Source of the DNA: Patescibacteria group bacterium
GTDB lineage: Bacteria; Patescibacteriota; Patescibacteriia; Magasanikbacterales; GWA2-37-8
Length of the DNA: 64,000 nucleotides
Reading direction: 5' to 3'
NCBI GenBank assembly: GCA_022710645.1
Contig: JAKLGL010000001.1
Location: forward strand, 274,712 to 338,711
Positions 6,701-63,218 of the stretch are shown in pieces. Below the pieces are notes generated by a model. That model ran no database searches, was not told where the DNA came from, and worked only from the letters and a program-made list of their open reading frames with translations. Numbering within the stretch: the stretch's first letter is position 1; every line of letters starts with the position of its first letter. A program made the translations under genes and the position numbers.

Positions 6701-9050
6701 ACTGATCATTCCAAGCAGTTACCACATTACTACTATTAACCGTGGCCGGAACAAATTTTCCAGTCACACTTTCTCCTGTCAAAAGACCGTCAAAATTAAG
6801 CGTCTGATACAATCCGCATCTTTCTTCTTCCGGCAAACAAACCGGAGAGTAATTTTTACAAGCGTCAGTACTGACTGGTTTTATTTTGTTGAAATCCGCT
6901 AAATTTTGTGGCCACTGCACGCCGTTACTGCGATTGTTATCACTATCATAACAACCTAAATAATCCGGCGCTTTTTTGAAATAAACAACATTTGATTCTG
7001 TCGAAGTATTCAGAGCCAAGGCCGTACAACCGGCATCTTTAGCTTGGCAAGTCTCTGTTTTTTTATTCAAATAAAAACCTTTTCCTTTGCCGTAATCCCA
7101 AGTTCCGCTGGCAAAATTACTGTTGGGATAAGTTTTGAAATTACTATAAAAAATACAACCAACATTATCACTGTCACACATCTCGCTATTGAGCGTTCTA
7201 GTTAAATAAGAAGAAGTTTTTCCTTTACTATTGGTTAAAACTTTACAAGTCGCATATTGACTATCGCAATAGTCAGCATCAAAACGCCAAACGCTTTTTT
7301 CTTTCAAACAATAACCGTAAGCCAAACATTTTCCGTTTTTGTCATAATCCACACAGGTTTGCAAATCAGCGCATTCTTCTTGACGAACCGGAGTATCTTT
7401 ATCTACAAGCTGAGTTCCGTAAACCAGAGATTTGCAACGAGCCGGCGGAATTTTCAAAACCCAATTCGGATTTATCAAGTGATAATAAGGAGAACGCACA
7501 TTATCAAAATTTTCCAAAATTTCTTTCAATGTCGGCGGACCGGAAACAAAAACATTTACCCCATTTGCATAAGCGGTGTTGGTAGCATTCACCTCGGTCA
7601 AAGAAGCTATTTCAAAACCAAGAGGTAGCACTCCGGCTTTGCGAAGAAGTTTGATATTTTTGTAACAAAAAGCTCCGGCATAACAATCTTTTTCACTATG
7701 TTGACGCTCAGTGGCTTCACCGGGGCCTATCAATTTCCAATTTTCATCCAAATAACCTTTTTCAATAGCGCCTCGAATAGTTAAAGGCTGACCTAATTCC
7801 GCCGATCTTATAGCTTGAGCAAACTGTTCATCAATCACGCAATTTTCAACTCCAGGATTATCCGGACAAGAAGAAAATTTTGATAAAAGATCATATTTGC
7901 TAATTTCTCTGGATTTGGCCACCAATAACAATTCGGCAAAAAGCGAAGCTGCTTCTTGTTTATAGGAAGATTCCCCGCCGGCATAATAATTTCCTTCAGC
8001 ATCGTATTTACTTTCCACGCAAGTATCTATGCTCAAACCGCCGATCTTGAGGTAACTCGGAACACATTTAACTTTTCCTAAACCAAAAGGAAACATGCCT
8101 TTGGTAAGAAAATTATCCATAGCCGTACCAGCGAAAGTATCTATAAAAGTAGAAGCCGCGTTCATCAAAACTTGTATAGAGCCTTTTTGTAAAGCCGCAG
8201 CCATATATTCTTGAGTGCTTTGTTTTTTACCCTCAACTTGTGCTCCTTTGCCGGCTTTTACTAACATATCTTTATTAACTTCAGCTGGAGTAATAATGTC
8301 GCCGGAAATAGCCGTGGTCAAAGATTTTACTCCCCCACCTTCGGTTCTTTCAGCCTTAGCAGCAGCCTCAGCATCGAGCGCATAACTATCCATTTTGCTT
8401 TTGGCTTCTATACCTATACCTAAATCAGTGTCGGAAATTTCCAAAGAAGTATTAAATCTCTTACTAAAACCTTCGCCGTTTTCCCCCCAATATTTACTTT
8501 TGATATTTTCCGCACTATAAGTATCTTTGAGCTGTTGAAAAGAACAGGTAGGTTTTGGTTCGGAGTAAGCCAAGTGCAAACCCATTTTCAAAGCCAAATC
8601 AAGTTTCGGATCAGGTAAACTACAAAGATTAAAACCGACACCTTTGGCAAAACTGTCCAAAGCCGTACCTAAAGCATCACCAGCCACTCCGGCCCAATAA
8701 TCACCCATGCTCTTGGTATTGAAAAGCGGAGATTGTCCCCAATTACCGGAAGCCAAACTCACAGCCATATCATATGCGACTTTATTTAAAAGAAAATCTA
8801 AACCTTTCATCGCACCAACCATTACCGAATCAATAAAATTATCTTCCACCTTATTCCAATTTTCTTCTAATTGAGCTTTTGTTTCATTCCATGTGTTCCA
8901 CATGTTTTGAGTATTGTCATAAGTTGGCAAGCCCTGAGCCATGGCCGGTGAGGCAAAAACAAAAGAAAAAGAAAAAATAACCAGAAGAAGGACTGGAAAT
9001 AGTTTAGGTTTAAGACGGGGAAAAAGGGACATAAAATATATAATTTTCAA
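789..9050 (-). CDS. Giant (2,753 aa) secreted Cys-rich extracellular protein; function unknown (candidate surface or adhesin protein)
   Basis: Single uninterrupted ORF. N-terminal signal peptide MKIIYFMSLFPRLKPKLFPVLLLVIFSFSFVFASPAMA. Composition is N/S/T/G/D/Y/C-rich with many paired Cys throughout. No catalytic motif was recognised. It is the last gene of a minus-strand operon. Confidence 0.6.
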   Translation of the reverse strand: MKIIYFMSLFPRLKPKLFPVLLLVIFSFSFVFASPAMAQGLPTYDNTQNMWNTWNETKAQLEENWNKVEDNFIDSVMVGAMKGLDFLLNKVAYDMAVSLASGNWGQSPLFNTKSMGDYWAGVAGDALGTALDSFAKGVGFNLCSLPDPKLDLALKMGLHLAYSEPKPTCSFQQLKDTYSAENIKSKYWGENGEGFSKRFNTSLEISDTDLGIGIEAKSKMDSYALDAEAAAKAERTEGGGVKSLTTAISGDIITPAEVNKDMLVKAGKGAQVEGKKQSTQEYMAAALQKGSIQVLMNAASTFIDTFAGTAMDNFLTKGMFPFGLGKVKCVPSYLKIGGLSIDTCVESKYDAEGNYYAGGESSYKQEAASLFAELLLVAKSREISKYDLLSKFSSCPDNPGVENCVIDEQFAQAIRSAELGQPLTIRGAIEKGYLDENWKLIGPGEATERQHSEKDCYAGAFCYKNIKLLRKAGVLPLGFEIASLTEVNATNTAYANGVNVFVSGPPTLKEILENFDNVRSPYYHLINPNWVLKIPPARCKSLVYGTQLVDKDTPVRQEECADLQTCVDYDKNGKCLAYGYCLKEKSVWRFDADYCDSQYATCKVLTNSKGKTSSYLTRTLNSEMCDSDNVGCIFYSNFKTYPNSNFASGTWDYGKGKGFYLNKKTETCQAKDAGCTALALNTSTESNVVYFKKAPDYLGCYDSDNNRSNGVQWPQNLADFNKIKPVSTDACKNYSPVCLPEEERCGLYQTLNFDGLLTGESVTGKFVPATVNSSNVVTAWNDQCDASCVGYNSYKEMPTKYGKGTDLAYIIPQKEASCSASESGCSAFVNLSTVSNNLEQTEYFTDLRTCILPDKNRQKNFYTYEGRDAGGYQLISYVLLKESSGAPKQMYRDTAERDLLRSKCSQTAQDFNFRTDDGEQCRELIDDTGKKYYVFLNKTVAVSDKCTSYRAVKPEFDTGTDCLGSINDGGDKVVFYDVNTGYCVYNGLPSGIQTTAGGSFACAKEKVSCRPYKGNTGNYSNTLMNQTFEGSVVFGTDNQTQTWGKANPADSFTSLSVSTESLINNGHSLKVVVNAGGASGTKYYALPLTPGKSYRVSFLAKGSGSWGLRFWHLLNNNVADFTLTDNWKRYEYVFEAVKDANADAQNKLTAQLVLKPNTVQSQILYVDNVKVELVSDIVYLVKDKLTVPSLCDADQTDNLPGQALGCRAYKTTASLNPVYLHNFSYLCRDGAQGCTKVYDTNNRELAGTDSKKYIVYNLWLKKSEFGTPGVSGELSTTVGGVSLKCFAAKEENGCYVEKIVAPSGALSALSEYYTTATIVIPPRSESPIYLVLKDQNVSCAEAEKGCTALGSSVLLSDDSRKYQDVYLKIKPNTSDFDNSICNDKAEGCDSWKSGSSNYYFKDPEIYGNLICEWKKDDTGVYKWLMKGTTSTICYADNSAVNGSYLPSYGSDNYANYTGVCPADQSDCTLFTDRYSESQSKKCAVSGKKCQFDKDCTSDAKDVCSDPDKEYYLINNSKISDAQKDCSGKVSLNSGCVLFDKTDNPTKTWDTAATYAASNAKGGALVDPINNASTNDANIVMKVMLDRTCSLWSYCSEYMTNRDGDTGQLSSRCYRLGLCTKAQAGATSDGQCVDIVTSTSEKDIPLTKKVYQSRSTAWNAEEFTGYSLFNSYQIYDLQVREIKYPSVSGLNGIPLIILPENKLVHTEVTTTVCNVNDVISSKKECSSAKMPGLKGYCSGEECVFPAMPYSSYDLDATEKTDVMEDPKASPGLSCRGYPEQDSPFNLWVLRDSTATGVNREFKKGFSDKVNLCSGGDCDCSYKKYNYKSQNVYLGSNAVEGDYAKGVCLGGLEEGKGCDPTVVNSCGDENSGGICSPLKSINALLGWEGYCVEKDVRNPFYTAGGTDNTCLTWWPVESVEGATDLYVYDDTAGWRVTEKTPLEVCAYNNPVKNSINNTSWACSASNIEPYKYAQKLNSYISHASGDPVREWYVKGSDFRGEGEKLEPLNSFGGTTQICGNDINGKCENPSPELCSNSDNGQKISWQGNYMYPYYIQGKKFGCERNNDDAGIEGVNGQELLIKNLSPNSTAYYIYASDDNEDYSIPSSDSDVVFEKIDRKSITKIEVLVSDSVKEGIENNFDNNRFTFYNGEFFELNTKNDNLPDAFKDSDGGYFVSSTYFKPSNTCYQKLTGNDWGLQIWGVNGNINCEEDKYKEGSNGFTVKIKWTENGILDGLSVETKDVRGTYEKHSGDITNCNTIDGGDENGSRGNAFIFIVHYSDGTCSADNSDKIIVRDNTDVFSIKPVTWRLIKDKVFLFNNSNDNQPSSAAYSNSYKYRTIYARREAVPSLYYGLTNGEDPKFLNSFRKYFNFWDADNQQPFGLLGNSGSLNGGVALINYDSKEAKQNDLMDYGTYENGEIYTYKYRIPLNQIAADCSKNIPFENVLPDGDNSKKNDSPICNMFRKMFVKGWVGSAGLKVDFASPKAAKDLGIKIRPPVIAAPVKMSKEDCDIKIQKCKDSAAANKFGCEAEKVCNSFVLDQMSVTGDNVTGKDIQIAYGQPLILRFYAWADPAQMPLRSIWVKKNISDVDFVKVEAESMGNRKPKCTNFGYCVGGSGTNWSNADDYKYQIPCDGDWDCVFYNESSDNLVEGKCQPQNQALDDDPEGFGNNRGEGCRADYYEFYLNIANTNITYKPAVQVKDNWGWCSGKCDNTTNYPAGYNGIGCYSEIVFGSNTFNDCDSSNKAWKEYNGGISVK

Positions 9051-9080
9051 TTTTTAATTTTCATTAAATTTTCAATCATC
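9040..9080. repeat. Left inverted-repeat arm (family B, ATTTTCAAT units) flanking a four-helix-bundle gene
   Basis: Sequence 'aattttcaatttttaattttcattaaattttcaatcatcaatttacaatttc'. Its reverse complement matches 9455-9510 and the gene-less copy at 22095-22200. Confidence 0.6.
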
Positions 9081-9483
9081 AATTTACAATTTCTTTATCA
9101 TTGCCTTTTCTGCTAGTCATGCCTATTTTTTGAAATATCATAGTTAGCTCCTGTGCTTCTGACCAGTATATCCTGAGTTCTTTTTTTAAATCTTCGTTAC
9201 AAACTGCTAACATTCTTAACCAGTGTTTTGTTTCTTGCGCTTCTTTTTTGCAAATAAATATTTTGTTTATAAAATCTTTTTTTGATGCCGCCCCATTGGC
9301 TTCCATATAATTAGCTCCCACACTAGTAGCTGATCGAATAATTTGACCAATCAAAGATTTGTTATATTCATTAATTCTTATTCTTTGACACAATTTAATA
9401 ATGTCTTCACCAAACTTTGCAGTCCTCTCTTCCAAATCATAACCAGATACCATATTTTGAAAATTAAAATATTGAAAATTCAA
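9079..9483 (-). CDS. Four-helix-bundle protein (PF05635/TIGR02436-like, '23S rRNA intervening-sequence protein' family)
   Basis: Motif ...SATSVGANYMEANGAASKKDFINKIFICKKEAQETKHWL... is typical of the family. The track ORF starts at a TTG; the probable true start is the ATG at 9453 (MVSGYDLE...). The gene is flanked by inverted repeats. Confidence 0.6.
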   Translation of the reverse strand: MNFQYFNFQNMVSGYDLEERTAKFGEDIIKLCQRIRINEYNKSLIGQIIRSATSVGANYMEANGAASKKDFINKIFICKKEAQETKHWLRMLAVCNEDLKKELRIYWSEAQELTMIFQKIGMTSRKGNDKEIVN

Positions 9484-10421: not shown

Positions 10422-13400
10422 TTATTTTTTATTTTTTCCTTGTTGTTTAGCGCCTTGTTCTACTCCTTTTTTAACAGCATCAGCTATTTTCTCGCTGGAT
10501 TTTGACAAAGCTTGGGCGACTTCTTTGGGAATTTTGGATAAAACCGCCTGAGCCGATCTCGAATTGTTTTCTATCATTTTCTCAAAAGTATTTACAAAAT
10601 CCTTGCCTAAATCCAAGTTTTTGAAACTTCCTGTCTTGGAATCAAGTAAATTCAAAAGTTCCGTGGAAAGACGGCCGTGGATACGTCCTTGGAAAGTGAA
10701 GTTTCTCAATGTTTGTATGATCATATTTTGAGCATGTTCATCCAAACCGACCATTTCTCCACTACTGTTAATTGAAGCTATACCGGACAAGCTCTCTAGG
10801 TCTCCGACTTTATTGGAAAGCGGGCCGGTAAAATATTTTTGACCTTCTAAAATTTTATTTTTATTTGTCTGTAATTTATATTCGGCTAAGCCATTCTTTC
10901 CCAAAGAAGTACCGTCGTAAATGGAAACCGTGTGCGAAAAACCGGAGGGCGCCGCAGCTCTGGCGGAAATATCGTTATTACGCAAAACTGTTTGCCAACT
11001 CTCGGCACCCATTTTTTCTTGACCAATTTTAAACATTTTTTTAGTTTCGTCCAACAACATTCTATCTCTTGTTTTTCCATATTCTTCGGCAAAAGCTTGA
11101 TCATAATCTTCATCTTTTAGAGGACCATACTTTTCTTCAATGTCTTTATCTGTTTCTGCTGATACCTTTTTGCTGTCAAGAATATCTTGCAAATCTATTT
11201 TTTCGCCAGCCATCCTTGCAGTTTCAACCAATTGATGAGCAAACGCATCTCCAGAATCGAGTTTGTCATATTTTATACCATAAGCTTCGTTAATGGATTT
11301 TTGTACCGCAGCAATACCGTCGGAACCGAAATTTTTAGCAGCCACGGATTCCATAGCAGCTTGATTGGATAATAAAGCTTTTCTTTCTCTTTCATAACTT
11401 TCTTTAGGCATAGCGGCTTTATTTTTATCCAATTCTATGACTTTATTGGCATTTTGAGCTGACATAGCTACCAATTCAGCATACTGTAAATTACCAAAAC
11501 TTTTCTCGCGTCCGGACTGTAACTCCGCCCAATAAGCAGCTTCGTTTGTCTTTGGTATAAATCTTTTTTCAGCTTGTTCATCTTTGGCTTTGGCAATTTC
11601 CAATTTTTTCTCATCTTCAACAATCATTTTGAGGGTTTCCGCACTGGCCTGTTGTCTATACACTTCATTTTGTTTTTCTCTGAATTTTTTATCTTGTTTT
11701 AATAATTCTTCTATTTTTTTGAGTTCTCTTATAGATTCTCTGGAACCGACTTCTTCTTTGAGTTGTTGTGTTTCAAGTTTAGTTTTAACAGTTTCTTCTT
11801 TCATGGTTCTGAAACGACTTTCTGATCTCAATTTTTCCTCAGCCGCTATTTTTTCTTGTTGTGCGGCAGTAAATTTTTTATAATCTTCAGATTCGCTTTT
11901 TAATCTTTCCAATTCTTTTTGTCTTTCCACATAACCGGCTTCACCCATTTTCAATTTAGCCATTTGATCCTTTATACGATCTTCTCTGGCTTGTTTCAAA
12001 CCTCCGGCTTGCGTTCCTTCCAATTCTTTTGCGAGAGTTTCTTCCATAATACCGGGCGCTTCAGTTTCAACCCAAGCTTGAGCATTTTCTTTAACACCAA
12101 TACCTCCAGCTTCTTTTCGTCTTTTTAATAATTCAGCATATGCTTTTACTCTTTCGTTTTGATTTTTTTGATTCCAGTTAGCTTTGGTTCCGGATAAATC
12201 ATCCAAAACACTATCCCATGCTTCGTTTTCTCCTTTGAGCTGTTTATTTAGTCTTTCATTCTTAACGGAACGATTATACATTTCGCCTACAAAACCACCT
12301 TCTCTGAGACTTCTGGCTGTAAATCTTTTTAAACCTGTTTTTGCGCCTTCATATCGATTCATCCAAGCATAACCGCCGATTCCCGGTGCATTCATAGCAA
12401 TACCCTTGGTAATACCAAGAGCAGCTCCTTTTGCTTTTTCCCCCGCCCAACCGGCCAATCTAACACCGGTAGCAACAGTAGCAATTTTCTTGGCCGTACT
12501 CATTGCCGAGCTTAAAGCGCTGGCACCAGTAACTCCAAGTTCCTGAGTTTTTTTAACACCGGTAATAAGCAAAGCAATAGCTATGGCAAAAGAAGCCATT
12601 TTACCCCATTCCATAGCCTGGGAAATACCGGTAGCCGTGCTACCAAATAACGCATTAGTTTCGTAACGTTTTGCCTGGTCAGTCGGCAAGACTTCATTAA
12701 AAGAATCTCCTCCACCAACTATGGCAAATGACAACCAGAAAAAGAAAGCTAAGATAGGACCAGCCATTACGTGATTGTTAAATTCTTTCCACCACTCAGA
12801 AGCGTATTTTTGGGTGTTTGGTAAAACACTACTCATAAACGCTATTGGCGAAAGAACTATCAAAGTCCACAAGGCTACAACACGAGCGATAACCACCAAT
12901 AAATAAGCTCCTATAACAAAAAAACTGATAACGGAAAAAAATACAGCAGCTACTCCGGTCACAAAAACATCCGTAGCGCTGGCGGCTTTTTGAGCCAATT
13001 CCTGATCCGGACTTAAATTGTAAATAGTATCTAAATTCAAACCTTTTATCACATTCCCTCCAGCAGTAGCGGCAAAGCCATTTACAAAAGTCATCATAAA
13101 AACCTGAGAAACATCGATAATCACACCGCAAATAACTCTGCTAAAATTCACCAACACGGCGGCGAAAACCAATTTTACTAAAAGTTTTTTCCATTCATAT
13201 TGTTCAATACCGAGAACCGTACCAAAAGCTATCACCAAAAGAATCAAAACAAAAAACATGTTCACTACATCGCGAACCAAAACCCAGCCCAGAATAACAG
13301 CTTGGGAGTTGATAAAATTATTATATGAAGCTATGACAATGAAAAGTTGCGACGCCCAAACCGTCAATTTGATAAAAAACTGGGCAATAAGCAACAACAT

Positions 13401-13586
13401 CCAAGTAATAATCGAGGCTATGCCCATAGAAATTTCTTCCGTAGTCGGCCAACCCCAAGCCAAAGCATACCCGGCAGTCAAAATCCCGCTAAAAACAAAT
13501 ACAAAAAATAACACAACCAGAAGTTTGTTTTTCTTGTTTTTTCCAAATCTGAATTTCTCCTTAATTTTCCCAAAAAAAGACGACAT
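10422..13586 (-). CDS. Polytopic membrane protein with a TrbL/VirB6-like N-terminal multi-TM domain (~330 aa) and a ~700-aa charged coiled-coil C-terminal extension
   Basis: At least 6 hydrophobic helices within residues 20-330, with a layout and Trp/Pro pattern reminiscent of TrbL/VirB6 (PF04610). The remainder is E/K/Q/A-rich predicted coiled coil. It is the first gene of the operon, with promoter at 13667-13695. Family assignment is by eye only. Confidence 0.4.
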   Translation of the reverse strand: MSSFFGKIKEKFRFGKNKKNKLLVVLFFVFVFSGILTAGYALAWGWPTTEEISMGIASIITWMLLLIAQFFIKLTVWASQLFIVIASYNNFINSQAVILGWVLVRDVVNMFFVLILLVIAFGTVLGIEQYEWKKLLVKLVFAAVLVNFSRVICGVIIDVSQVFMMTFVNGFAATAGGNVIKGLNLDTIYNLSPDQELAQKAASATDVFVTGVAAVFFSVISFFVIGAYLLVVIARVVALWTLIVLSPIAFMSSVLPNTQKYASEWWKEFNNHVMAGPILAFFFWLSFAIVGGGDSFNEVLPTDQAKRYETNALFGSTATGISQAMEWGKMASFAIAIALLITGVKKTQELGVTGASALSSAMSTAKKIATVATGVRLAGWAGEKAKGAALGITKGIAMNAPGIGGYAWMNRYEGAKTGLKRFTARSLREGGFVGEMYNRSVKNERLNKQLKGENEAWDSVLDDLSGTKANWNQKNQNERVKAYAELLKRRKEAGGIGVKENAQAWVETEAPGIMEETLAKELEGTQAGGLKQAREDRIKDQMAKLKMGEAGYVERQKELERLKSESEDYKKFTAAQQEKIAAEEKLRSESRFRTMKEETVKTKLETQQLKEEVGSRESIRELKKIEELLKQDKKFREKQNEVYRQQASAETLKMIVEDEKKLEIAKAKDEQAEKRFIPKTNEAAYWAELQSGREKSFGNLQYAELVAMSAQNANKVIELDKNKAAMPKESYERERKALLSNQAAMESVAAKNFGSDGIAAVQKSINEAYGIKYDKLDSGDAFAHQLVETARMAGEKIDLQDILDSKKVSAETDKDIEEKYGPLKDEDYDQAFAEEYGKTRDRMLLDETKKMFKIGQEKMGAESWQTVLRNNDISARAAAPSGFSHTVSIYDGTSLGKNGLAEYKLQTNKNKILEGQKYFTGPLSNKVGDLESLSGIASINSSGEMVGLDEHAQNMIIQTLRNFTFQGRIHGRLSTELLNLLDSKTGSFKNLDLGKDFVNTFEKMIENNSRSAQAVLSKIPKEVAQALSKSSEKIADAVKKGVEQGAKQQGKNKK

Positions 13587-14178: not shown

Positions 14179-15042
14179 ATGAACGAAAGATATGAAAAGA
14201 TCAGAGAGGAAATCAGAAATTTCAAACTGTGTGTCGGAAAAGAAAAATATCCGACCATGACAGTACATGAATACACCGGATTTGAAAACATTTTGAAGGA
14301 GATGGAAAAGGAGAAAGAGATAACGGACAGTGCGGTTAATATACTGGAACAGAACTGGCTCAAAACTCTTCTGTTTAATCTCGGAAAAGAGATTGAGCGG
14401 TATGAAACCGCTCTGGATATTGAATATGTTCAGAACTTGAACGCGGAAAAGTATGTCTCTCTCAACAGAGAGGACTACTACCGCGTAGTAGAAGATTACA
14501 ATCGTCTGGTTGAAAAAGCGCATCTGAGGCGAGAAGAGCTCAACGCTCTGGCGAAAAGCTGGAGAGATGACGAGGAAGTAAAAGCCTTCGACAAAGGTGA
14601 GTTGAAAGTCGCATGGTCCTACCGCATGAAGGAAGAAATGCGAGAACAAAAACGAGAAGCCACTGAAAAAAATTACCAAGAGAGATGGGCCGCGATATGG
14701 CACGATATATTCGCGGTAATCTGTTTCGTGGTAGGAATCTGTCTAGGCTTTTTCACAAAAAGTCTCATTACTACCTTGTTTGTCACTTTCACTTCGCTAT
14801 TGGTTATGAAGGAGGCTTTTGAAACCTCCAATATTACCGTAGCGCCACGCAGTGCCAACGCTTATCTGTTTTCCTACACTGCCTATTCGGTCGTCGTGGG
14901 TGTGGGCAGTTCCCTTTGGACATTATACCTTTCTCTTTTCAGCAAGGTTGGTGGAAACTCGTTGATAGTTTTTGTCATCACAATGCTGGCGCTTTTATTG
15001 ATCCTATCTTCTTACAATAAGAAGATATTCAAAAAAGCATAG
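14179..15042 (+). CDS. Membrane protein: N-terminal cytoplasmic coiled-coil domain plus 3-4 C-terminal TM helices, unknown function
   Basis: GGAGG RBS upstream. Terminator hairpin at about 15054-15085. Confidence 0.5.
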   Translation: MNERYEKIREEIRNFKLCVGKEKYPTMTVHEYTGFENILKEMEKEKEITDSAVNILEQNWLKTLLFNLGKEIERYETALDIEYVQNLNAEKYVSLNREDYYRVVEDYNRLVEKAHLRREELNALAKSWRDDEEVKAFDKGELKVAWSYRMKEEMREQKREATEKNYQERWAAIWHDIFAVICFVVGICLGFFTKSLITTLFVTFTSLLVMKEAFETSNITVAPRSANAYLFSYTAYSVVVGVGSSLWTLYLSLFSKVGGNSLIVFVITMLALLLILSSYNKKIFKKA

Positions 15043-15171: not shown

Positions 15172-16395
15172 ATGGAAGACTGGCAAAGAAACGGCATGGT
15201 GAAATGGGACGCCTGGCAATACATGTTTGTCGGGGAGGCTTTCAAATTTCAGGCTAATGCCCTTGATGAATCGTTGAGTAAACATCGTGAGCTGGTTTGT
15301 CGGGAATATTTAAAAAATACCGATCGACTCATTGCCAGCCAAGAAACTGTTTATGAAATCATTGACGGAATCGTAGAAAAAATCAGCAACAAACAAAACC
15401 CGTCAGCTATCATTGCAAACAGTAACAGCCAATTGTCAGAAACTTTTATTCGCGGCACCAGTCAAGTTTTATCTAGTTTATCTTTTCTGCAGGAGGATAT
15501 TAACAACGGATTTTCCAATATCAGTGATAAACTTGAAGACATCAGTGACGCAATTGGTAATTTAGGAGCTTCTTTTAACTGGGGTGTAGACAGATTGGTT
15601 TGGCATCTGAGCGACATCAAAAAAACCATTCAAATGCCGATTGACAATAAAGCGCTAAACTATCGTATGCGTGGCATTAATGCTTATCAAAACGGTTGGT
15701 TTGACGAAGCCCTGAAAGAATTTATCCAGGCTAACTCTTACTACGAATACGATTTCATCACTCATCAGTACTTGGGAGATCTTTATCTTTACTACAAGAA
15801 AGATCTGAATAGAGCGCTTGAACATTTTCGCCGCGCGGCGAAATATTCAATGGTAAAAAACGCTTCGGTAGAACACAAAAAAATCAGTAGCTGGGCAGAA
15901 CTGCACATCGGTCTTGTCTTCTACAAAAAAAATGATTTCGAAGAAGCAGCTCAAGCCGCTTATCGTGCCGCCACCAAAAACCCTAGTCCGGAAGCTATGT
16001 ATCAGATAGGACACTATATGTCTTTGACCAAACAAAAGGATGAGAGATTAAAAAATATTCTCAGTGCTTTCGAGCAAGCCATCCGCGAAGATCCTGTTTA
16101 TTTTCTCAAAATAGACATGGATCATAATCTTTTTGAAAGAGACCTTTATAAAATCAGAAATGAAATGAAAGCACTCAAAGAATCGCTTTTTAGAGAAGAA
16201 CGGGAAAAAGCTTGGCAAAAAATCTCTAAACTCAAGCATATTTTTGAATCGACCAAATGGCATTATAACGCCAGCACAATAACCGAGATAGATAAAATGA
16301 AAGAAGACCTGCGTTTAGTGGAAGAAATGTTCAAAAACCGCCAAAGTTATCTTGATTTCAGAATAATCCAAGAAATATGCGGAAAAAACATATAA
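15172..16395 (+). CDS. TPR-repeat protein (407 aa), cytoplasmic
   Basis: Several 34-aa TPR-like units (for example ALNYRMRGINAYQNGWFDEALKEFIQA and WAELHIGLVFYKKNDFEEAAQAAYRAA). Confidence 0.55.
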   Translation: MEDWQRNGMVKWDAWQYMFVGEAFKFQANALDESLSKHRELVCREYLKNTDRLIASQETVYEIIDGIVEKISNKQNPSAIIANSNSQLSETFIRGTSQVLSSLSFLQEDINNGFSNISDKLEDISDAIGNLGASFNWGVDRLVWHLSDIKKTIQMPIDNKALNYRMRGINAYQNGWFDEALKEFIQANSYYEYDFITHQYLGDLYLYYKKDLNRALEHFRRAAKYSMVKNASVEHKKISSWAELHIGLVFYKKNDFEEAAQAAYRAATKNPSPEAMYQIGHYMSLTKQKDERLKNILSAFEQAIREDPVYFLKIDMDHNLFERDLYKIRNEMKALKESLFREEREKAWQKISKLKHIFESTKWHYNASTITEIDKMKEDLRLVEEMFKNRQSYLDFRIIQEICGKNI

Positions 16396-18533: not shown

Positions 18534-18884
18534 TTAGTCTTTTAATGCTTTTATTAATCCTGAAAGCAACCTCGAAATTTCTATCGATAACTGATAACAA
18601 TTATCGTAATCACACTGCTGGATAATCTTTAAACTGAAAGCTAAATCAAGCATTGACCTCACTTCACCACAAGAACCCTTGGCAATAAACAGAAATTTTT
18701 TAAACTCCTTATCCCCTCTTCTTTCAAAACCTTCAGCAATATTATTCATTATAGAAACGCTTGCTCGTTGAATTTGGTCTTTAAACGAATAATCTCGTGA
18801 TGGTTCAAAAATCTTAAATATTATTATTGTTATTTGTTTGGCTTTTTGCCAAGCAATAATATCTTCAAACTTTTCGATTTTCAT
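18534..18884 (-). CDS. Four-helix-bundle protein (PF05635/TIGR02436 family)
   Basis: Motif ...ASVSIMNNIAEGFERRGDKEFKKFLFIAKGSCGEVRSML... is canonical for the family. Confidence 0.7.
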   Translation of the reverse strand: MKIEKFEDIIAWQKAKQITIIIFKIFEPSRDYSFKDQIQRASVSIMNNIAEGFERRGDKEFKKFLFIAKGSCGEVRSMLDLAFSLKIIQQCDYDNCYQLSIEISRLLSGLIKALKD

Positions 18885-18945
18885 AAATTTAACTTTACGG
18901 ACTTTAAAGACTTTACGGACTTTATAGACTCACACTAGACTTCTT
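18885..18945. repeat. Right inverted-repeat arm (family A)
   Basis: Sequence 'aactttacggactttaaagactttacggactttatagactc'. Confidence 0.6.
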
Positions 18946-22113: not shown

Positions 22114-22200
22114 TTTACAATTTTCATTGAATTTTCAATGACGTAATTTACAAAATAGCCATTGATAATTGAAAATTGATAATTGATTGAAAATTAAAAA
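22095..22200. repeat. Gene-less copy of the family-B inverted-repeat element (MITE-like) between gpmI and eno
   Basis: 'attttcaatttacaattttcattgaattttcaatga' ... 'cattgataattgaaaattgataattgattgaaaatt'. The first part nearly matches the reverse complement of 9487-9520. Confidence 0.55.
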
Positions 22201-23448
22201 TTAAAAATTCTTTAGTTCACCCTCTATCTCCATCAATCTATTGTATTTTTCAACTCTCTCAGAACGAGATAATGAGCCGGTTTTTATCATGTCCGCATTT
22301 ACCGCCACCGCCAAATCGGCTATAAAAGTATCGGAAGTTTCTCCACTACGATGTGAAACATTAATTTTATAATTGGCTGCTTTAGCCATTTTAATAGTTT
22401 CTATCGTTTCACTCAAAGTGCCTATTTGATTAACCTTGATCAACACGGCATTACCTATTCCTTGTTTAATGCCTTCGGCAAAAATTTCAGGATTAGTTAC
22501 AAAAATATCGTCTCCGACTAAAATTAATTTTTCATCGGTTTTAGCAGTTAAAATCTTCCAACCCTGCCAGTCTTGTTCCGCCAAACCGTCTTCTACCAAA
22601 ATAAGAGGATATTTTTTTATCCATTCTTCATAGATTTTAATCATCGCATCAGCCGTAATATTCTTTCCTTTTTCAAATTGATATTTACCATTTTCAAAAA
22701 ATTCAGAAGCGGCCACATCTAAACCCAAAAACACATCTTTACCGGGTTTATATCCAGCGGAAATAATGGCTTTTACAATAGTTTTTAGCGCTTCTTCATT
22801 ATTTTTAAGATGCGGAGCAAAACCACCTTCATCCCCCACCGAAGTTGCCAATTTCTCCGTTTTCAAAATTTTCTTCAAACTATGGAATACTTCAGCTCCC
22901 ATTCTGACTCTTTCGCTCATTAATTTATGTTGCGGAATAATCATAAACTCCTGAATAGACAAACCACTGTCAGCATGAGCTCCACCATTGATAATATTCA
23001 TTGTCGGTACCGGTAAAAGAAATTTATTTTCTTTAATAGAAAAAACTTTACGTAAATATTTATAAAGAGGCATTTTTGCATTTTCCGCTCCGGCACGAGC
23101 AACCGCCATAGATACGGACAAAATAGCATTAGCTCCCAATTTCTCTTTATTTTTTGTTCCATCCATTTTTATCATTTTTGCATCTATTTCTTGGATTTTA
23201 TCCACGTCCATTCCGATGATAGTTTTAGCTATTTTTTCATTAACATTTTTTACCGCTTTAAGCACTCCTTTACCTCCGTATCTTTTTCCGCCATCGCGCA
23301 ATTCCAAAGCTTCTCGACTGCCTGTCGAAGCTCCGGATGGAACTTTGGCAACACCAATAACGCCGTTTTGCAAAACAACTTTGGTTTCAACCGTCGGATT
23401 ACCGCGAGAATCAAGAATTTCCCTGGCAATTATTTTTTTTATCTTCAT
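22201..23448 (-). CDS. eno: Enolase
   Basis: Canonical enolase sequence throughout (SGETED-like [27 protein letters not shown]). Confidence 0.95.
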
Positions 23449-34495: not shown

Positions 34496-35581
34496 ATGCT
34501 GAAAAATTTTATTGAGATTAAAGATAAGTTTTTAAAATTAGAAAACGATCTGTCCGACCCCGTTATTCTTAACGATACAAAAAAACTAAAGGAGGTTTCT
34601 CAAGAGTATAATGAATTGAAACCGGTAGCTGAAAAAATAGAAGAATTGAATAAATACGAAAAAAATTTACAATCAACCAAAGAAGTGTTGGAAAAAGAAA
34701 CCGACGAAGAGGTAAAACAAATGGCCAAAAACGAAATCCAAGAACTTGCGGAAAAAACCGAAAAACTAACTAAAGAATTGGAAGAATTAACCAGGCCGAA
34801 AGATCCGATGGATAAAAAAGATGTTATCGTGGAAATTAGAGCAGCTGCCGGCGGAGACGAATCAGCGCTTTTTGCCGCCGAGCTTTACCGTATGTACAAC
34901 AAATATTCAGAAAGCAAAGGGTGGAAAACTTCGCTTATAGATTCTAATATTATCGGAATAGGCGGATTCAAAGAGGTTATTTTTTCGGTAAAAGGACAAA
35001 ACGTATACAAGGATTTGAAATACGAAATGGGTGTTCATAGAGTACAACGGGTTCCGGAAACGGAAAAAGCCGGACGCGTTCATACTTCTACCGTCACGGT
35101 TGCGGTAATGCCGGAAATCGAGGAAACAGAATTCAAAATAGAAGCCAAAGATTTACGTATTGATACTTTCTGCGCCGGCGGACACGGGGGTCAAAGTGTG
35201 AATACCACTTATAGCGCCGTGCGTATCGTTCATGTTCCGACCAATACTATAGTTCAGTGTCAAGACGAAAGATCGCAAGCCGCCAACCGTGAAAAAGCCA
35301 TGGCGGTTTTACGTTCTCGTCTTTATGAAATAGAACGCGAAAAACAACAAAAAGAAATGTCTGATAAAAGAAAAAATCAAATCGGTTCCGGCGATCGCAG
35401 TGAGAAAATTCGCACTTACAATTTCCCGCAAGACAGAATAACCGATCATCGAATTCATCAAAGCTGGAACAATATCGGGACCATTTTGAACGGTGATTTA
35501 TCAACCATTATCGAAGCTTTACGTAAAGCGGATTATGAAGGTGTAACCGCTTCGGATTTTAACGATGAAGATGAAGAATAA
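34496..35581 (+). CDS. prfA: Peptide chain release factor 1
   Basis: GGQ motif ([10 protein letters not shown]). PxT-type recognition region. Confidence 0.9.
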
Positions 35582-36458
35582 AATGTTTAAAATAAATAAT
35601 AACGAAGAGCTCCTGCTACTTTGCCAGGCCACCGGCAAGACCAAAGAATGGCTTTTGGCACATCCTGAATATAAAAATTTTTGGGCGCTTTTGAAATATA
35701 AACATTATCTGAACAAATTAAAAAAAGGAACTCCTGTCGCTTATATCTTGGGACATAAAGAATTTTTTAATTTGGATTTTTTGGTCAATAAACATACCCT
35801 CATCCCCCGCCCAGACACGGAAATACTCGTTGATATGACCATCAACGAAATTTACAATTTCCTCCGCCTAGGCGGACCAATTTCCAATTCATTACTAATA
35901 GACATTGGTACAGGAACAGGGTGTATACCTATTACAATATTACAAAAATTACAAGATTGTAAAATGAACACAAGTGCCATAGATATTTCTAAAGGAGCTT
36001 TAAAAATTGCAAAAAAGAATGCCAAAAAATATAATGTTGATATTAAATTTATTCAAGGTAACCTTTTAACACCCGTTGTTAAATCTCTGCAATTTCTGCA
36101 ATCTTTGAAATCTCTTCAATTCATTGTAATCACCGCCAATTTGCCGTATTTGAAAGAAGAATGGTGGAAAAAAGAACCTTCAATTCAAAAAGAACCAAAA
36201 TTGGCTTTAGTATCTGATAATGAAACAGGTTTAAATATTTACGAACAACTCTTAATACAAATCGTCATTCTAAAATCTAAAACCTTGCCTACCGGCAGGC
36301 AGGTCAAAAATCAAAAATTGTTAATCTTACTCGAAATCGATCCTCGCCAAAGCACGCAAATTTTTCCTTTAATACAAAAATACCTGCCGTCGGCAAGTAT
36401 TGAAATCATCAAAGATTTATCGGGTTTTGATCGAGTTGTTAAAATCAATTTATTGTAA
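35565..36458 (+). CDS. prmC: Release-factor glutamine N5-methyltransferase (HemK/PrmC); NPPY degenerated to NLPY; contains repeat-derived in-frame insertions
   Basis: Overlaps prfA by 17 nt. GTGTGCI SAM motif. ANLPY motif. Extra tandem-repeat and palindrome-derived segments at 36080-36125 and 36264-36304. Confidence 0.7.
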
Positions 36459-44672: not shown

Positions 44673-44718
44673 ACGAATTATTTATTTAAATGATTTAAAA
44701 AATTTAAAAGATTTATCT

Positions 44719-44794
44719 GTCATTCTGAGCGTAGCGAAGAATCTGCAAGCAAAATTATTGCTTTTTACAGATCCTTCACTGCGTTCAGGATGAC
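44719..44794. repeat. GC-rich inverted-repeat element (family C): GTCATTCTGAGCGTAGCGAAGAATCTG ... CAGATCCTTCACTGCGTTCAGGATGAC
   Basis: Imperfect 27-nt arms; most arm differences are transitions, several giving G.U wobbles in RNA. Lies between the methyltransferase stop and the band-7 start. Confidence 0.6.
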
Positions 44795-45548: not shown

Positions 45549-45594
45549 AATTTTAGATTTATGATTTATGATTTTAGATTGATAAGTTATTTAT

Positions 45595-45707
45595 GTCATT
45601 CCCGCGGGCCAACGGCCTCCCTTTGGGAAAGACGGAAACCTGCCTGCCGGCAGGCAGGTCCAGTGGCTATCTTACTTTTCCTGGATCCCCGCCTTCGCGG
45701 GGATGAC
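45595..45707. repeat. Composite palindromic element (family C variant): GTCATTCCCGCG ... CCTGCCTGCCGGCAGGCAGG ... CGCGGGGATGAC
   Basis: Terminal inverted repeats GTCATYCCCGCG. Internal perfect 20-bp palindrome at 45639-45658. Two additional GC hairpins. Confidence 0.6.
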
Positions 45708-51836: not shown

Positions 51837-51940
51837 GTCATCCTGAACGAAGTGAAGGATCTGCAAAAGGCAATAATCTTTTTTACAGACCTACCTGCCG
51901 GTAGGCAGGTTCTTCTCCGCCTGAGGCGGATCAGAATGAC
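51837..51940. repeat. Composite family-C element: GTCATCCTGAACGAAGTGAAGGATCTG ... CCTACCTGCCGGTAGGCAGG ... CCGCCTGAGGCGG-ATCAGAATGAC
   Basis: Lies upstream of the uvrA start, between divergent genes. A spurious track ORF (51506-51904) translates it as ...CHPERSEGS.... Confidence 0.6.
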
Positions 51941-52918: not shown

Positions 52919-52940
52919 ACCTGCCTGCCGGCAGGCAGGT
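52919..52940. repeat. Solo copy of the 20-bp palindrome CCTGCCTGCCGGCAGGCAGG (family-C core)
   Basis: Identical to 45639-45658. Lies between two terminator hairpins. Confidence 0.55.
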
Positions 52941-53686: not shown

Positions 53687-53767
53687 GTCATTCTGAGGAG
53701 CTTAGCGACGAAGAATCTGTAAAAGCAACTATCTTACTTGCAGATCCTTCACTACGTTCAGGATGAC
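53687..53767. repeat. Family-C inverted-repeat element: GTCATTCTGAGGAGCTTAGCGACGAAGAATCTG ... CAGATCCTTCACTACGTTCAGGATGAC
   Basis: Lies just downstream of uvrB. Its arms are homologous to 44719-44794 and 51837-51863. Confidence 0.6.
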
Positions 53768-53852: not shown

Positions 53853-55937
53853 CTACTTATCCGCTTTGCGTCCTTTCAACTCTCTCACCTCATCTCGCAA
53901 AATCGCCGCTAATTCAAACTCCAAATGTTCCGCAGCCTCGCGCATTAATTTTTCTTTTTCTTTGATAATAACTTCAAGCGGTCTGCCATCCCCTATCAAA
54001 TCCAAATCCGTGACTGATAATTTTTTCGCTTTGTTTCTTAATTTGCCTTTTTGTTTTTCTTCGTTGAGTGTCAATCCGAAATCCGCCAAAATATTTTTGA
54101 TAGTTTTTTCAATAGTCTTTGGCGTAATGCCGTGTTTTTTATTGTAAGCAAGTTGAATTTCTCGGCGACGAGCGGTTTCATCTATCGCCTTTTGGATAGA
54201 ACCGGTGATATTATCCGCATACAAAACCACTTGACCGTTCGCATTGCGCGCCGCGCGTCCGATAGTTTGGATGAGCGAAGTGCTACTGCGCAAAAATCCT
54301 TCTTTGTCAGCATCAAGAATTGCGACAAGTGATACTTCCGGCATATCCAAACCTTCACGCAATAAATTCACACCAACCAAAACATCAGTTTTGCCTTTGC
54401 GCAAATCTGTAATAATTTGGATACGTTCCAAAGTTTCTATATCACTATGTAAATAAGTAACTTTTATTTTTTTCTCTTTCAAATACTCGGACAAATCTTC
54501 GGCCATTTTTTTGGTCAAAGTTGTCACCAAAGTTCTTTCGTTATTTTTGATTCTTTCTTCAATACGAACCAGCAAATCCTCAATCTGGCTTTTAACTCCG
54601 ACTTTGCCTGTAACTGGCGCGATAATAACTTCCGGATCAATAAGACCGGTCGGACGCACGATTTGTTCCACGACCTGGTCGCTCAATTTCATCTCATAAT
54701 CATCCGGCGTAGCGGAAACATAAATCACTTGTTTGGTTCTTTCATCAAATTCTTCGTAAGTGAGCGGACGGTTGTCACGCGCTGAGGGAAGTCGGAAACC
54801 ATGTTCAATCAAAGTGTCTTTTCTTGATCTATCGCCGGCAAACATCCCGCGTAATTGCGGAATAGTCACGTGCGATTCGTCAATCACAGTCAAAAAATCC
54901 CCTGCTCCATAATGGAAATAATCCAGCAGTGTAAACGCCGGTTCGCCAGCTTTGCGTTCTTCAAAAAATCTGGAATAATTTTCTATCCCGTTGCAATAAC
55001 CGATGTGTTCTATCAATTCCAAATCATAATTTGTTTTGCGTTTCAATCTTTCCGCTTCCAATAATTTTCCGTGTCGCATCAATTCATCATAACGAACTTT
55101 GAGTTCGTCGCGAATTGCTTGCAAAGCATTGTTTTTTGTTTCTTGCGACACCACATAGTGTTTAGCCGGAAAAAGCCACATATCGGGACTTTCTCCGATT
55201 CGTTTACGGGTCAGCGCATCAAAAATTTCAATAGAATCTATTTTATCGCTAAGTCCGAAACGATAAATTTTTTCTTCATTTACCGGAACCAATTCCAAAA
55301 CTTGTCCGCGTAACAAAAATGTCCCACGTTTGAGTTCACCATTGGTGCGTTCAAATTTCATTTCCACGAGTTTTTCCATCAAACCGCGACGATCCAATTT
55401 TTGCCCGACTTCCAAATGTAAAATCGTGCGTTCATATTCTTTTGGTGAACCAAGGTTATAAATCGCAGAAACAGACGCCACGATTATCACATCTTTGCGA
55501 GTGAGTAGTGCTTGGGTGCAAGCATGGCGTAATCTGTCTATTTCTTCATTGATTTGCGCTTCTTTTTCAATATAGGTGTCGGTATGGGGCATGTAGGCTT
55601 CCGGTTGATAATAATCATAAAAAGAAACAAAATATTCCACCGCGTTATTGGGAAAAAATTCCCGAAATTCATTGCAAAGTTGAGCAGCCAAAGTTTTGTT
55701 GTGTGCTATTACCAAAGTTGGCTTCTGGGTTTTTTCTATCACATTGGCAACGGTAAAAGTTTTACCCGAACCGGTCACACCGAGTAAAGTCTGACGACGC
55801 ATATCACAAGAGATACCATCTACTAATTTAGCAATGGCCTCTGGCTGATCCCCGGCGGGTTTATATTTTGAAACTAATTTAAATTTCATCTGAATAAACT
55901 TTATGAACTTTATAACTTTACAAACTTTATAACTCAA
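53853..55937 (-). CDS. uvrB: Excinuclease ABC subunit B
   Basis: Begins at residue 17 of the track ORF (MKFKLVSKYKPAGDQPEAI, about 55889). Helicase motifs GVTGSGKT and DESH. C-terminal UVR domain. Confidence 0.95.
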   Translation of the reverse strand: MSYKVCKVIKFIKFIQMKFKLVSKYKPAGDQPEAIAKLVDGISCDMRRQTLLGVTGSGKTFTVANVIEKTQKPTLVIAHNKTLAAQLCNEFREFFPNNAVEYFVSFYDYYQPEAYMPHTDTYIEKEAQINEEIDRLRHACTQALLTRKDVIIVASVSAIYNLGSPKEYERTILHLEVGQKLDRRGLMEKLVEMKFERTNGELKRGTFLLRGQVLELVPVNEEKIYRFGLSDKIDSIEIFDALTRKRIGESPDMWLFPAKHYVVSQETKNNALQAIRDELKVRYDELMRHGKLLEAERLKRKTNYDLELIEHIGYCNGIENYSRFFEERKAGEPAFTLLDYFHYGAGDFLTVIDESHVTIPQLRGMFAGDRSRKDTLIEHGFRLPSARDNRPLTYEEFDERTKQVIYVSATPDDYEMKLSDQVVEQIVRPTGLIDPEVIIAPVTGKVGVKSQIEDLLVRIEERIKNNERTLVTTLTKKMAEDLSEYLKEKKIKVTYLHSDIETLERIQIITDLRKGKTDVLVGVNLLREGLDMPEVSLVAILDADKEGFLRSSTSLIQTIGRAARNANGQVVLYADNITGSIQKAIDETARRREIQLAYNKKHGITPKTIEKTIKNILADFGLTLNEEKQKGKLRNKAKKLSVTDLDLIGDGRPLEVIIKEKEKLMREAAEHLEFELAAILRDEVRELKGRKADK

Positions 55938-63097: not shown

Positions 63098-63218
63098 GAA
63101 AGTCCATAAAGTCCGTAAAGTCAAAAAGAAAATTAAAAAACTTTCCCATTTGGGAAAGTTTTTTAATACTTTTTAAAAAGACTTTACAGACTTTAAGGAC
63201 TTTACGACTTTACAGACT
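63098..63218. repeat. Gene-less family-A inverted-repeat element enclosing the rplK terminator hairpin
   Basis: AGTCCATAAAGTCCGTAAAGTC ... [ACTTTCCCATTTGGGAAAGT-TTTTT] ... GACTTTACAGACTTTAAGGACTTTACGACTTTACAGACT. Confidence 0.55.

Follow-up and report, generated by a model that had tools for sequence, protein, structure and literature searches.

The prmC gene and its loop insertions

We analysed a stretch of 64,000 nt from contig JAKLGL010000001.1 of a Patescibacteria group bacterium; the window refers to this whole stretch, and coordinates are positions within it. Our subject is prmC (hemK), which encodes a release-factor N5-glutamine methyltransferase and directly follows prfA, the gene for its substrate, and the short repeats found inside it. 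The gene carries a clean in-frame palindrome insertion of 21 nt and a 15-nt insertion of a second palindrome family, and it has gained one 9-nt unit of a tandem repeat; the palindromes recur elsewhere, and the NLPY form of motif IV is ancestral. We consider it probable that this is a working PrmC of a Magasanikbacteria-like bacterium of the Candidate Phyla Radiation (CPR) in which variable surface loops were lengthened by repeat DNA, the palindromes being selfish modules that spread.

Comparisons used a protein alignment (A1) of the query PrmC and 35 orthologues (36 sequences). The DNA of seven orthologues, from independent assemblies, was threaded onto the protein alignment and an eighth, P0017, was compared separately. 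A wider set of 262 PrmC relatives includes 50%-identity cluster representatives and extends down to about 40% identity. An earlier note on this DNA held that repeat DNA had been inserted into a housekeeping open reading frame (ORF) and tolerated in frame, and the strings it quoted all lie where it placed them. The codon alignment with orthologues P0002 and P0016 bears this out, with 21-nt and 15-nt inserts and, relative to P0016, one extra 9-nt unit; the palindrome is also a multi-copy family in the window.

The 21-nt insertion can be read directly against the empty site of P0002 and P0016. That site is AAT CTA AAA TCT AAA ATC AAA AAT CAA AAA, and the filled site of the query is ATT CTA AAA TCT AAA A[CC TTG CCT ACC GGC AGG CAG G]TC AAA AAT CAA AAA. 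The two differ by exactly 21 nt, with no target-site duplication and no flanking base lost, and the insert follows the AA of a heptamer unit (AAT-NNNN) inside an AT-rich tandem array. The flanking heptamers do not stem from a target-site duplication, as the empty sites already hold both units. The insert encodes TLPTGRQ (TLPTGRQV with the flanking A/T). The earlier note had counted about 8 residues more than the E. coli loop; the extra length is real, but it amounts to 7 residues against the nearest orthologues. The same note took 36264-36304 for a fragment of its repeat family C, which comprises the 104-113-nt elements bounded by GTCAT...ATGAC that are described below. The palindrome within this segment stands, but GTCATTC (36264-36270) was ruled out as the terminal repeat of an element, since P0002 and the insert-bearing P0017 have GTCAATC. 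These are ancestral codons with one A-to-T change after the insertion, and the likeness to an element end is coincidental.

The 15-nt insertion, not listed in the earlier note, contains a perfect 14-nt palindrome (35863-35876). At this site the orthologues have AAT ATC CAA TAT CCA ATA TCC AAT, which comprises three ATCCAAT-type heptamers. The encoded LRLGG is located in the loop before strand beta1 and motif I, with AATTTCC-type heptamer repeats on its flanks, and is absent from all other sequences among the 262 relatives. A near-identical sequence, TCCGCCTGAGGCGGA, is present at window position 51916 and in four unrelated genomes.

The tandem repeat (Tandem Repeats Finder: score 50, period 9, 4.3 copies, 76% matches) exceeds that of P0016 by one 9-nt unit, a state common to the query, P0002 and P0003. 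In every close orthologue this loop consists of short CAATCT-like repeats, and the 9-nt gain is therefore attributed to slippage rather than to foreign capture. Thus the repeat that the earlier note regarded as absorbed is real and has gained a unit, but it is not an absorbed foreign sequence. About 17 comparable AT-rich arrays with periods of 7-9 nt occur in the window, for example at 9042-9092, 18892-18930, 22161-22209, 44684-44715, 45550-45590, 55897-55934 and 63179-63218. Two of them adjoin genes (9079-9483 and 18534-18884) for proteins of the 23S rRNA intervening-sequence family PF05635, and two others adjoin GTCAT elements (44684-44715 next to 44719, and 45550-45590 next to 45595).

An AlphaFold (AF2) model of PrmC, built on the orthologue alignment, has a mean predicted local distance difference test score (pLDDT) of 91.4 and a predicted template-modelling score (pTM) of 0.88. 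Its top Foldseek folds are T. maritima HemK and E. coli PrmC (1nv8, 1vq1, 2b3t and 1t43, TM 0.71-0.83), 2b3t being a complex with release factor 1 (RF1); 1nv8 and 2b3t gave TM 0.74-0.83. On the evidence of the known fold, the secondary structure and the confidence values, the inserts appear to sit in surface loops, the placement about which the earlier note had asked. The model is least confident over residues 231-240 (pLDDT 70), and the 7-residue insert lies there, following helix 219-233 and preceding strand 246-252; the segment encoded by the tandem repeat forms a peripheral helix (170-178, DSSP; block pLDDT 80) before strand beta4.

The gene is otherwise well preserved. The stop region of prfA and the start of prmC overlap by 17 nt, and the prfA-prmC order is also found in orthologous loci. 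We identified the Pfam domains PrmC_N (PF17827, 28.8 bits, cut-off 23.4) and then MTS (PF05175, 28.6 bits, cut-off 23) in the product, which scores 157.8 bits with the NCBIfam model hemK_fam (TIGR00536, cut-off 115.5) and just 81.6 bits with that of the L3 methyltransferase PrmB. Named database relatives are peptide chain release factor N(5)-glutamine methyltransferases of Candidatus Magasanikbacteria or Patescibacteria; a single other database entry, P0001, is identical to the query. Alignment A1 has 47 invariant columns. In motif I, D108, G110 and G112 are invariant and T111 and G114 nearly so, and the acidic residue after strand beta2 (D135, in AIDIS) is also invariant. The ratio of nonsynonymous to synonymous substitution rates (dN/dS) is 0.10-0.16 against five orthologues, with dS near saturation, and by this measure prmC is under purifying selection. 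Taken with the model, these features make it very likely that the enzyme is functional.

Motif IV of N5-glutamine methyltransferases is, in its textbook form, NPPY, as T. maritima HemK has at the aligned position. The query retains N, P and Y, with the first P replaced by L. The earlier note described this as degeneration, a view that the relatives contradict: A186-N-L-P-Y190 is without variation in all 36 aligned sequences, and ANLPY was found in 119 of the first 120 database matches and in 261 of the 262 relatives. It is therefore an old fixed variant rather than decay in this genome, and on this comparison NLPY is the ancestral, selected motif IV of the whole clade. The KsgA/Dim1/Erm family of rRNA adenine dimethyltransferases generally has an N-L/I-P-Y motif. 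These enzymes belong to the same Rossmann-fold N-methyltransferase class and have a native NLPY, although their substrate is adenine N6 in rRNA and PrmC acts on the N5 of a protein glutamine. One of them, human DIMT1, is an active N-methyltransferase with a native N128-L-P-Y131 motif, the change of which to AAAA abolishes activity (PMC8463865). By analogy, NLPY can be catalytic, yet this precedent is no proof for PrmC.

Could NLPY and the inserts instead mark a decaying gene, with an inactive or repurposed methyltransferase as its product? The departure from the textbook motif would fit, as would a score just under the cut-off of the PrmC equivalog model TIGR03534 (188.2 against 199.1 bits), although such a shortfall would be expected from the three loop insertions. 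We regard decay as very unlikely given the near-universal NLPY of the relatives, the invariant columns that include motif I and the post-I acidic residue, the low dN/dS, the intact ORF overlapping prfA, and the catalytic NLPY of DIMT1 (PMC8463865). The result removes a false alarm about prmC; in a large CPR clade, NLPY ought to be treated as a natural form of the PrmC motif, which bears on annotation rules that expect NPPY.

Table 1. Features of the prmC locus and related repeats in the window
Feature	Position	Strand	Basis or context
prfA (release factor 1, PrmC substrate; contains GGQ)	34496..35581	+	ORF translation; NCBIfam TIGR00019, 480.4 bits, cut-off 423
prmC / hemK, release-factor N5-glutamine methyltransferase, intact 297-codon ORF	35565..36458	+	Pfam, NCBIfam, fold, dN/dS
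In-frame insertion CTCCGCCTAGGCGGA, 15 nt, encodes LRLGG	35862..35876	+	Palindrome scan; codon alignment
S-adenosylmethionine-binding motif I, IDIGTGTG, intact	35898..35921	+	Translation; alignment A1
AT-rich 9-nt tandem repeat (AATCTCTGC x4.3), encodes 13 residues	36082..36120	+	Tandem Repeats Finder; codon alignment
Motif IV, NLPY (lineage-wide NPPY variant)	36138..36149	+	Alignment A1; 261/262 relatives
Two TCTAAAA heptamer units directly 5' of palindrome	36269..36282	+	Present without palindrome in P0002/P0016
In-frame palindrome insertion CCTTGCCTACCGGCAGGCAGG, 21 nt	36283..36303	+	Pattern search; filled/empty comparison with P0002/P0016
Two TCAAAAA heptamer units directly 3' of palindrome	36304..36318	+	Tandem Repeats Finder, period 7, 2.1 copies
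Canonical intergenic copy ACCTGCCTGCCGGCAGGCAGGT	45638..45659		Central module of 113-nt GTCAT...ATGAC element 45595-45707
Intergenic copy CCTACCTGCCGGTAGGCAGG	51890..51909		In 104-nt GTCATCCTGA...TCAGAATGAC element 51837-51940, also holding TCCGCCTGAGGCGGA (51916-51930)
Canonical intergenic copy	52919..52940		Between convergent genes, just past terminator-like hairpin

The window has a G+C content of about 36% and includes ordinary housekeeping genes. A 2753-codon ORF lies at 789-9050 on the minus strand, and ORFs without a Pfam match at E<=1e-5 include 10422-13586, 14179-15042 and 15172-16395.

A palindrome family in the window and across phyla

A search of the window with a degenerate 20-mer pattern gave matches at 36284-36303 (one mismatch), 45639-45658, 51890-51909 and 52920-52939, and none in 100 window shuffles. 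Compared with the canonical 20-mer, the prmC copy is one base longer and has one substitution. Its predicted hairpin energy is -9.5 kcal/mol, against -15.6 kcal/mol for the canonical copy, and it appears to have weakened as a hairpin since insertion. No Rfam match was found in the window at gathering thresholds. Four intergenic elements of 76-113 nt with inverted ends GTCAT(T/C)C...G(A/G)ATGAC were identified in the window (44719-44794, 45595-45707, 51837-51940 and 53687-53767), and GTCAT-type ends also flank the palindrome in other phyla (for example at loci L016, L081, L113 and L114).

The palindrome extends far beyond this genome. A scan of one genome per species with the pattern ACCT(N)GCCTRCCGGCAGGCAGG recovered the exact palindrome in at least 120 species genomes (at least 120 stretches) of many phyla, against roughly one match that we would estimate to arise by chance. 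Among the carriers are cultured Bacteroidota (Winogradskyella, Olivibacter, Flagellimonas, Longitalea, Aquiflexum and Aestuariivivens), many Patescibacteria, Planctomycetota, Ignavibacteria, Nitrospirota/Thermodesulfovibrionales, Omnitrophota and Elusimicrobia, as well as some uncultured members of the Gammaproteobacteria and Bdellovibrionales. From one locus to the next, the flanks are unrelated. The one-base-longer variant found in prmC (ACCTTGCCT...) is present in several phyla. No description of the sequence string, or of the peptide LPAGRQ in this sense, was found in the searchable literature, which is no proof of novelty.

In another variant that recurs in many phyla, the outer base of the central GCCGGC is changed (CCTACCGG / CCGGTAGG); it occurs in the window at 51890-51909 and 36292, and at loci L008, L017, L025, L026, L035, L044 and others. 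A sub-family in circulation could account for it, as could a methylated cytosine that is a hot spot for deamination. The second palindrome, TCCGCCT(N)AGGCGGA, occurs five times in about 0.86 Mb of unrelated palindrome loci (L100 2629 and 2720; L124 5742; L075 4927; L060 1646) in addition to window positions 35863 and 51916, and three times it stands in tRNA-like contexts (GGTAGAGCACGA-palindrome-TGGGG; GTGGTTAGGACA-palindrome-CAATCGTGGGTT).

Fifteen of 120 sampled copies lie inside long ORFs, including those for FtsK-like and leucyl-tRNA synthetase (LeuRS)-like proteins, and all fifteen are in frame, mostly reading LPAGRQ. The palindrome is without a stop codon in any frame. Removal at the RNA level, as for an intron, was considered and rejected: deletion of the core rescues a long ORF in just 3 of 120 cases, none of them protein-like, and the 15 copies are in frame as they stand. 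Genic copies are therefore translated rather than spliced out. The 21-nt 'T' variant lies in ORFs in 2 of 8 cases, against 13 of 112, too few cases to conclude enrichment. Direct repeats of at least 7 nt flank 18.6% of copies and 1.8% of mismatched flank pairs used as a control, an excess that agrees with the placement of the prmC insert inside tandem heptamer arrays.

Within PrmC itself, at least five distinct palindrome sites occur among the 262 relatives. P0004 (GCA_020047475.1) carries a 21-mer identical to that of the query ahead of motif I, where it interrupts an array of ATCCAAT-type heptamers as CCA A[...]TA. In P0013, P0014 and P0007 the palindrome is read in another frame (SACRQAG, PACRQAG and PVCRQAG) in two other loops. 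P0017 (L135; Logan SRR6837582) carries it at the site of the query, with G for A. The palindrome copies of the query and P0017 show one difference in 23 nt, and their flanks (window 36240-36330) differ at about 20% (p ~0.04, binomial estimate).

P0017 resembles P0006 over the N-terminal two thirds and the query in the palindrome-bearing loop, a mosaic that, from the sequences, is likely due to recombination between prmC alleles or to re-insertion. In the same four variable loops, other orthologues have in-frame inserts that are GC-rich and longer. Those in the loop after motif I (A1 columns ~195-225; P0002, P0009, P0012 and P0019, and P0004 and P0015) read SRDLQGRGD..VGLL.YARND (22-24 aa) or SGEAGLPSAEFNGV (14 aa), and are common to sequences that are not each other's closest relatives. 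More distant orthologues have inserts such as VIPTAKEESL, SDGVQSEGGF and DEMSGANFVT...

These orthologues bear on two further explanations. The window comes from a metagenome assembly and only P0001 is identical to its PrmC, as might be expected were the inserts an assembly or sequencing artefact; a related suggestion is that an ancestral loop was deleted in the other orthologues. Independent assemblies, however, carry the 21-23-mer at the same site (P0017, SRR6837582) and at another (P0004, GCA_020047475.1), the frame is kept, and cultured Bacteroidota isolates carry the palindrome. Deletion of a loop would require exact removal of the palindrome independently in many lineages. We find either scarcely credible.

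It has also to be asked whether the TLPTGRQ and LRLGG peptides, or hairpins in the mRNA, are adaptive, giving a new interaction or regulating translation. The insert at 36283 is kept in both the query and P0017, where it is more conserved than its flanks, and its hairpin is predicted to fold (-9.5 kcal/mol). Yet the same DNA occurs at different loops and in all three frames in different orthologues, as well as in unrelated proteins and intergenic DNA. LRLGG is unique to this genome, model confidence is lowest at the longer insert, and the genic copy is predicted to form a weaker hairpin than the canonical copy. An adaptive role therefore seems improbable.

The GIY-YIG and tRNA cassette

Several palindromes looked as if placed in tRNA D-arms, and these proved to be truncated tRNA 5' halves upstream of an ORF of about 80 aa encoding a GIY-YIG domain protein (PF01541). 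They are not interrupted tRNA genes; ARAGORN makes no tRNA call on them even with the insert removed. The palindrome loci (~0.86 Mb) contain seven strong GIY-YIG ORFs, all of which adjoin a palindrome. As a control for bias, 80 metagenome loci (L136-L215) were picked only by similarity to the GIY-YIG protein; the seed proteins came from palindrome loci, and the counts that follow hold for this GIY-YIG subfamily rather than for all GIY-YIG genes.

Among the 72 control loci with enough upstream sequence, 49 (68%) have a palindrome, nearly always exact, at most 300 nt upstream of the GIY-YIG start, mostly 35-65 nt before the start codon; 12 loci have one just past the gene. An intact tRNA lies within ~0-30 nt 3' of the ORF in 49 of the 68 loci with enough downstream sequence. 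These tRNAs are of many types (Leu, Arg, Lys, Phe, Gly and others), and in 26 of the 49 the first 14 nt of the tRNA are repeated upstream of the ORF. The palindrome interrupts this upstream fragment in 22 of the 26, most often 22-23 nt in and always after A. The order is thus a palindrome-interrupted 5' tRNA fragment, the ~80-aa GIY-YIG ORF, starting at or just past the anticodon-loop position, and an intact copy of the same tRNA. Examples are L041 (2070-2500), L104 (2100-2570), L111, L100, L072, L107, L122 and the metagenome loci L136-L215; L104 and L111 have a further palindrome downstream, in a 3' tRNA fragment (T-arm). Ten GIY-YIG loci compared with Rfam gave nothing beyond tRNAs and one rRNA end.

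Most sampled copies are solo, like that in prmC; 15% have an intact tRNA no more than 400 nt away, where 3.6% would be expected. In the window, a hidden Markov model search of all ORFs identified no GIY-YIG ORF, and there is no tRNA; the cassette architecture is seen only in other genomes. At L010 and L036 the palindrome-bearing 5' tRNA fragment stands directly upstream of the same intact tRNA with no GIY-YIG gene between, arrangements that may be remnants of a lost cassette. A phage vector was considered and rejected, the exact 22-mer being present in 7 of 2.9 million viral contigs, none of the seven with a GIY-YIG ORF. For neither the pan-phylum identity of the palindrome nor its link to the GIY-YIG cassette was a description found in the searchable literature, which yielded only general work on repetitive extragenic palindromic (REP) sequences and Rickettsia palindromic elements (RPEs). 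The most interesting outcome of the analysis is the identity of the prmC insert, a solo copy of a 20-nt palindrome that spans phyla and forms a regular part of a small tRNA-linked GIY-YIG cassette.

Proposed spread of the palindromes and comparison with known systems

Our preferred explanation is that the palindromes are selfish, hairpin-forming repeat modules, which may still be copied to new sites. Copies in genes would survive selection only if their length is divisible by three (21 nt, where the canonical copies have 20 or 22), if they hold no stop codon and if they are placed in tolerant loops; selection for frame and fold would thus explain why genic copies have 21 nt rather than 20 or 22. 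The inserts would be neutral passengers rather than adaptations. For the copying itself, our preferred guess is a cut-and-copy reaction that depends on a hairpin or single strand and is tied to the small tRNA-gene-associated GIY-YIG nuclease cassette, short tandem repeats being the preferred entry points. The copying mechanism is the weakest step, and that the modules spread at all we infer.

Copying might alternatively need no dedicated enzyme and proceed between short tandem repeats, through template switching or short-patch gene conversion: a nascent strand whose end is a heptamer unit would jump to the same unit at another locus, where it abuts a palindrome, copy the hairpin and return. 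Filled and empty sites that differ by the palindrome alone, without duplication and inside a heptamer array, fit this route, as do the flanking direct repeats across phyla (18.6% against 1.8% in controls), the AATCT/ATCTAAA-type heptamers that abut palindromes and GTCAT elements both in the window and in other phyla, and the apparent P0006-like and query-like mosaic in P0017. Against it, the flanking units vary by locus, and a donor with matching flanks would be needed every time; identity of the 20-mer across phyla would be hard to keep without a sequence-specific agent; and the fixed place upstream of GIY-YIG genes is left unexplained. On balance we think enzyme-free copying unlikely, while giving it some weight.

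Several points weigh against selfish modules in a working enzyme. The 15-nt event is not perfectly clean, as the query is also without 6 nt of the repeat at that site. The rule of insertion without duplication inside a heptamer array comes from two filled/empty site pairs, and both the activity of PrmC and the neutrality of the inserts are judged from conservation and predicted structure alone. No Y1 or other transposase was identified in the window in a Pfam search of 40 ORFs, with 17 further long ORFs outside that scan. Some 85% of sampled palindromes lie away from tRNA genes, and the cassette may have recruited a pre-existing repeat. Neither a single old passive insertion nor simple drift explains the conservation of the palindrome between the query and P0017.

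A bolder proposal, which we advance only tentatively and would not expect to hold in full, is that CCTGCCTGCCGGCAGGCAGG is the cis element of an undescribed pan-phylum mobile system. A tiny GIY-YIG cassette would invade tRNA genes, duplicate the 5' half and mark the displaced half with the palindrome, and its nuclease would disperse the solo copies in their thousands, including those in prmC, ftsK-like and leuS-like ORFs. If true, no smaller class of bacterial mobile DNA would be known, and loop insertions in proteins of CPR bacteria, Bacteroidota, Planctomycetota and other phyla would have a general source. If the GIY-YIG link is causal, one small nuclease and one 20-nt site make a testable system. 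It could be used to ask by what route short palindromic repeats spread, a matter unresolved even for classical REPs without a dedicated transposase.

Among known systems, miniature inverted-repeat transposable elements are defined by terminal inverted repeats, a target-site duplication and a length of 50-500 bp; the prmC copy has 21 nt and no duplication, and the intergenic GTCAT...ATGAC elements (76-113 nt) do have inverted ends. Free-standing GIY-YIG homing endonucleases are similar in that a small GIY-YIG ORF lies in a conserved gene, here a tRNA gene, and partial duplication of the target leaves an intact copy. The cassette differs in its ORF of ~80 aa with no recognisable DNA-binding domain and in the 20-nt palindrome in the displaced tRNA fragment; it is known here from its sequence, and homing is only a candidate activity.

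The MJRE palindromic repeats of Methanocaldococcus jannaschii reportedly have coding potential (a FEBS Lett report of 2005 is said to be by Suyama, Lathe and Bork). They are likewise short palindromic repeats, a few of them within ORFs left unbroken, but they are archaeal, have low identity between copies and have no known associated enzyme. RPEs are said to have been described by Ogata and colleagues in 2000 (reportedly Science 290:347) as selfish repeats in frame in housekeeping genes. They resemble the prmC family as in-frame palindromic inserts at different sites in different orthologues, tolerated as added surface peptides. RPEs are ~100-150 bp long, restricted to Rickettsia and have CGTC ends (PMC3733652), whereas the unit of the prmC family has 20-22 nt (21 in ORFs), is without the CGTC tag, resides in a CPR host and is identical across phyla. 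Proteins of reduced CPR genomes evidently gain loop residues through capture of probably selfish hairpins, in an RPE-like manner with a unit of just 20-21 nt, and through tandem-repeat slippage.

Mobile GC clusters and palindromic repeats of fungal mitochondrial genomes (for example PMC7218506) are GC-rich palindromes that spread in an AT-rich genome and occur alongside homing-endonuclease genes, but they are organellar, longer and lineage-specific. REPs are GC-rich hairpins of 20-40 nt, mostly extragenic and sometimes intragenic, with a GTAG/CGTC tag (Di Nocera et al. 2013, PMC3733652). REPs and REPINs are regarded as non-autonomous and as flanking the gene of the mobilising REP-associated tyrosine transposase (RAYT), and their families are species- or genus-specific. 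The prmC family is REP-like in its size of 20-22 nt and its abundance (4 copies in 64 kb, with 0 expected). It differs in its ends (ACCT.../...AGGT, neither GTAG nor CGTC), in its pan-phylum distribution, and in a recurring neighbour that is a GIY-YIG gene in tRNA loci rather than an IS200/IS605-type Y1 RAYT. The in-frame capture of palindromes is itself known from RPEs and some REPs (PMC3733652); pan-phylum identity and the GIY-YIG link set the prmC family apart.

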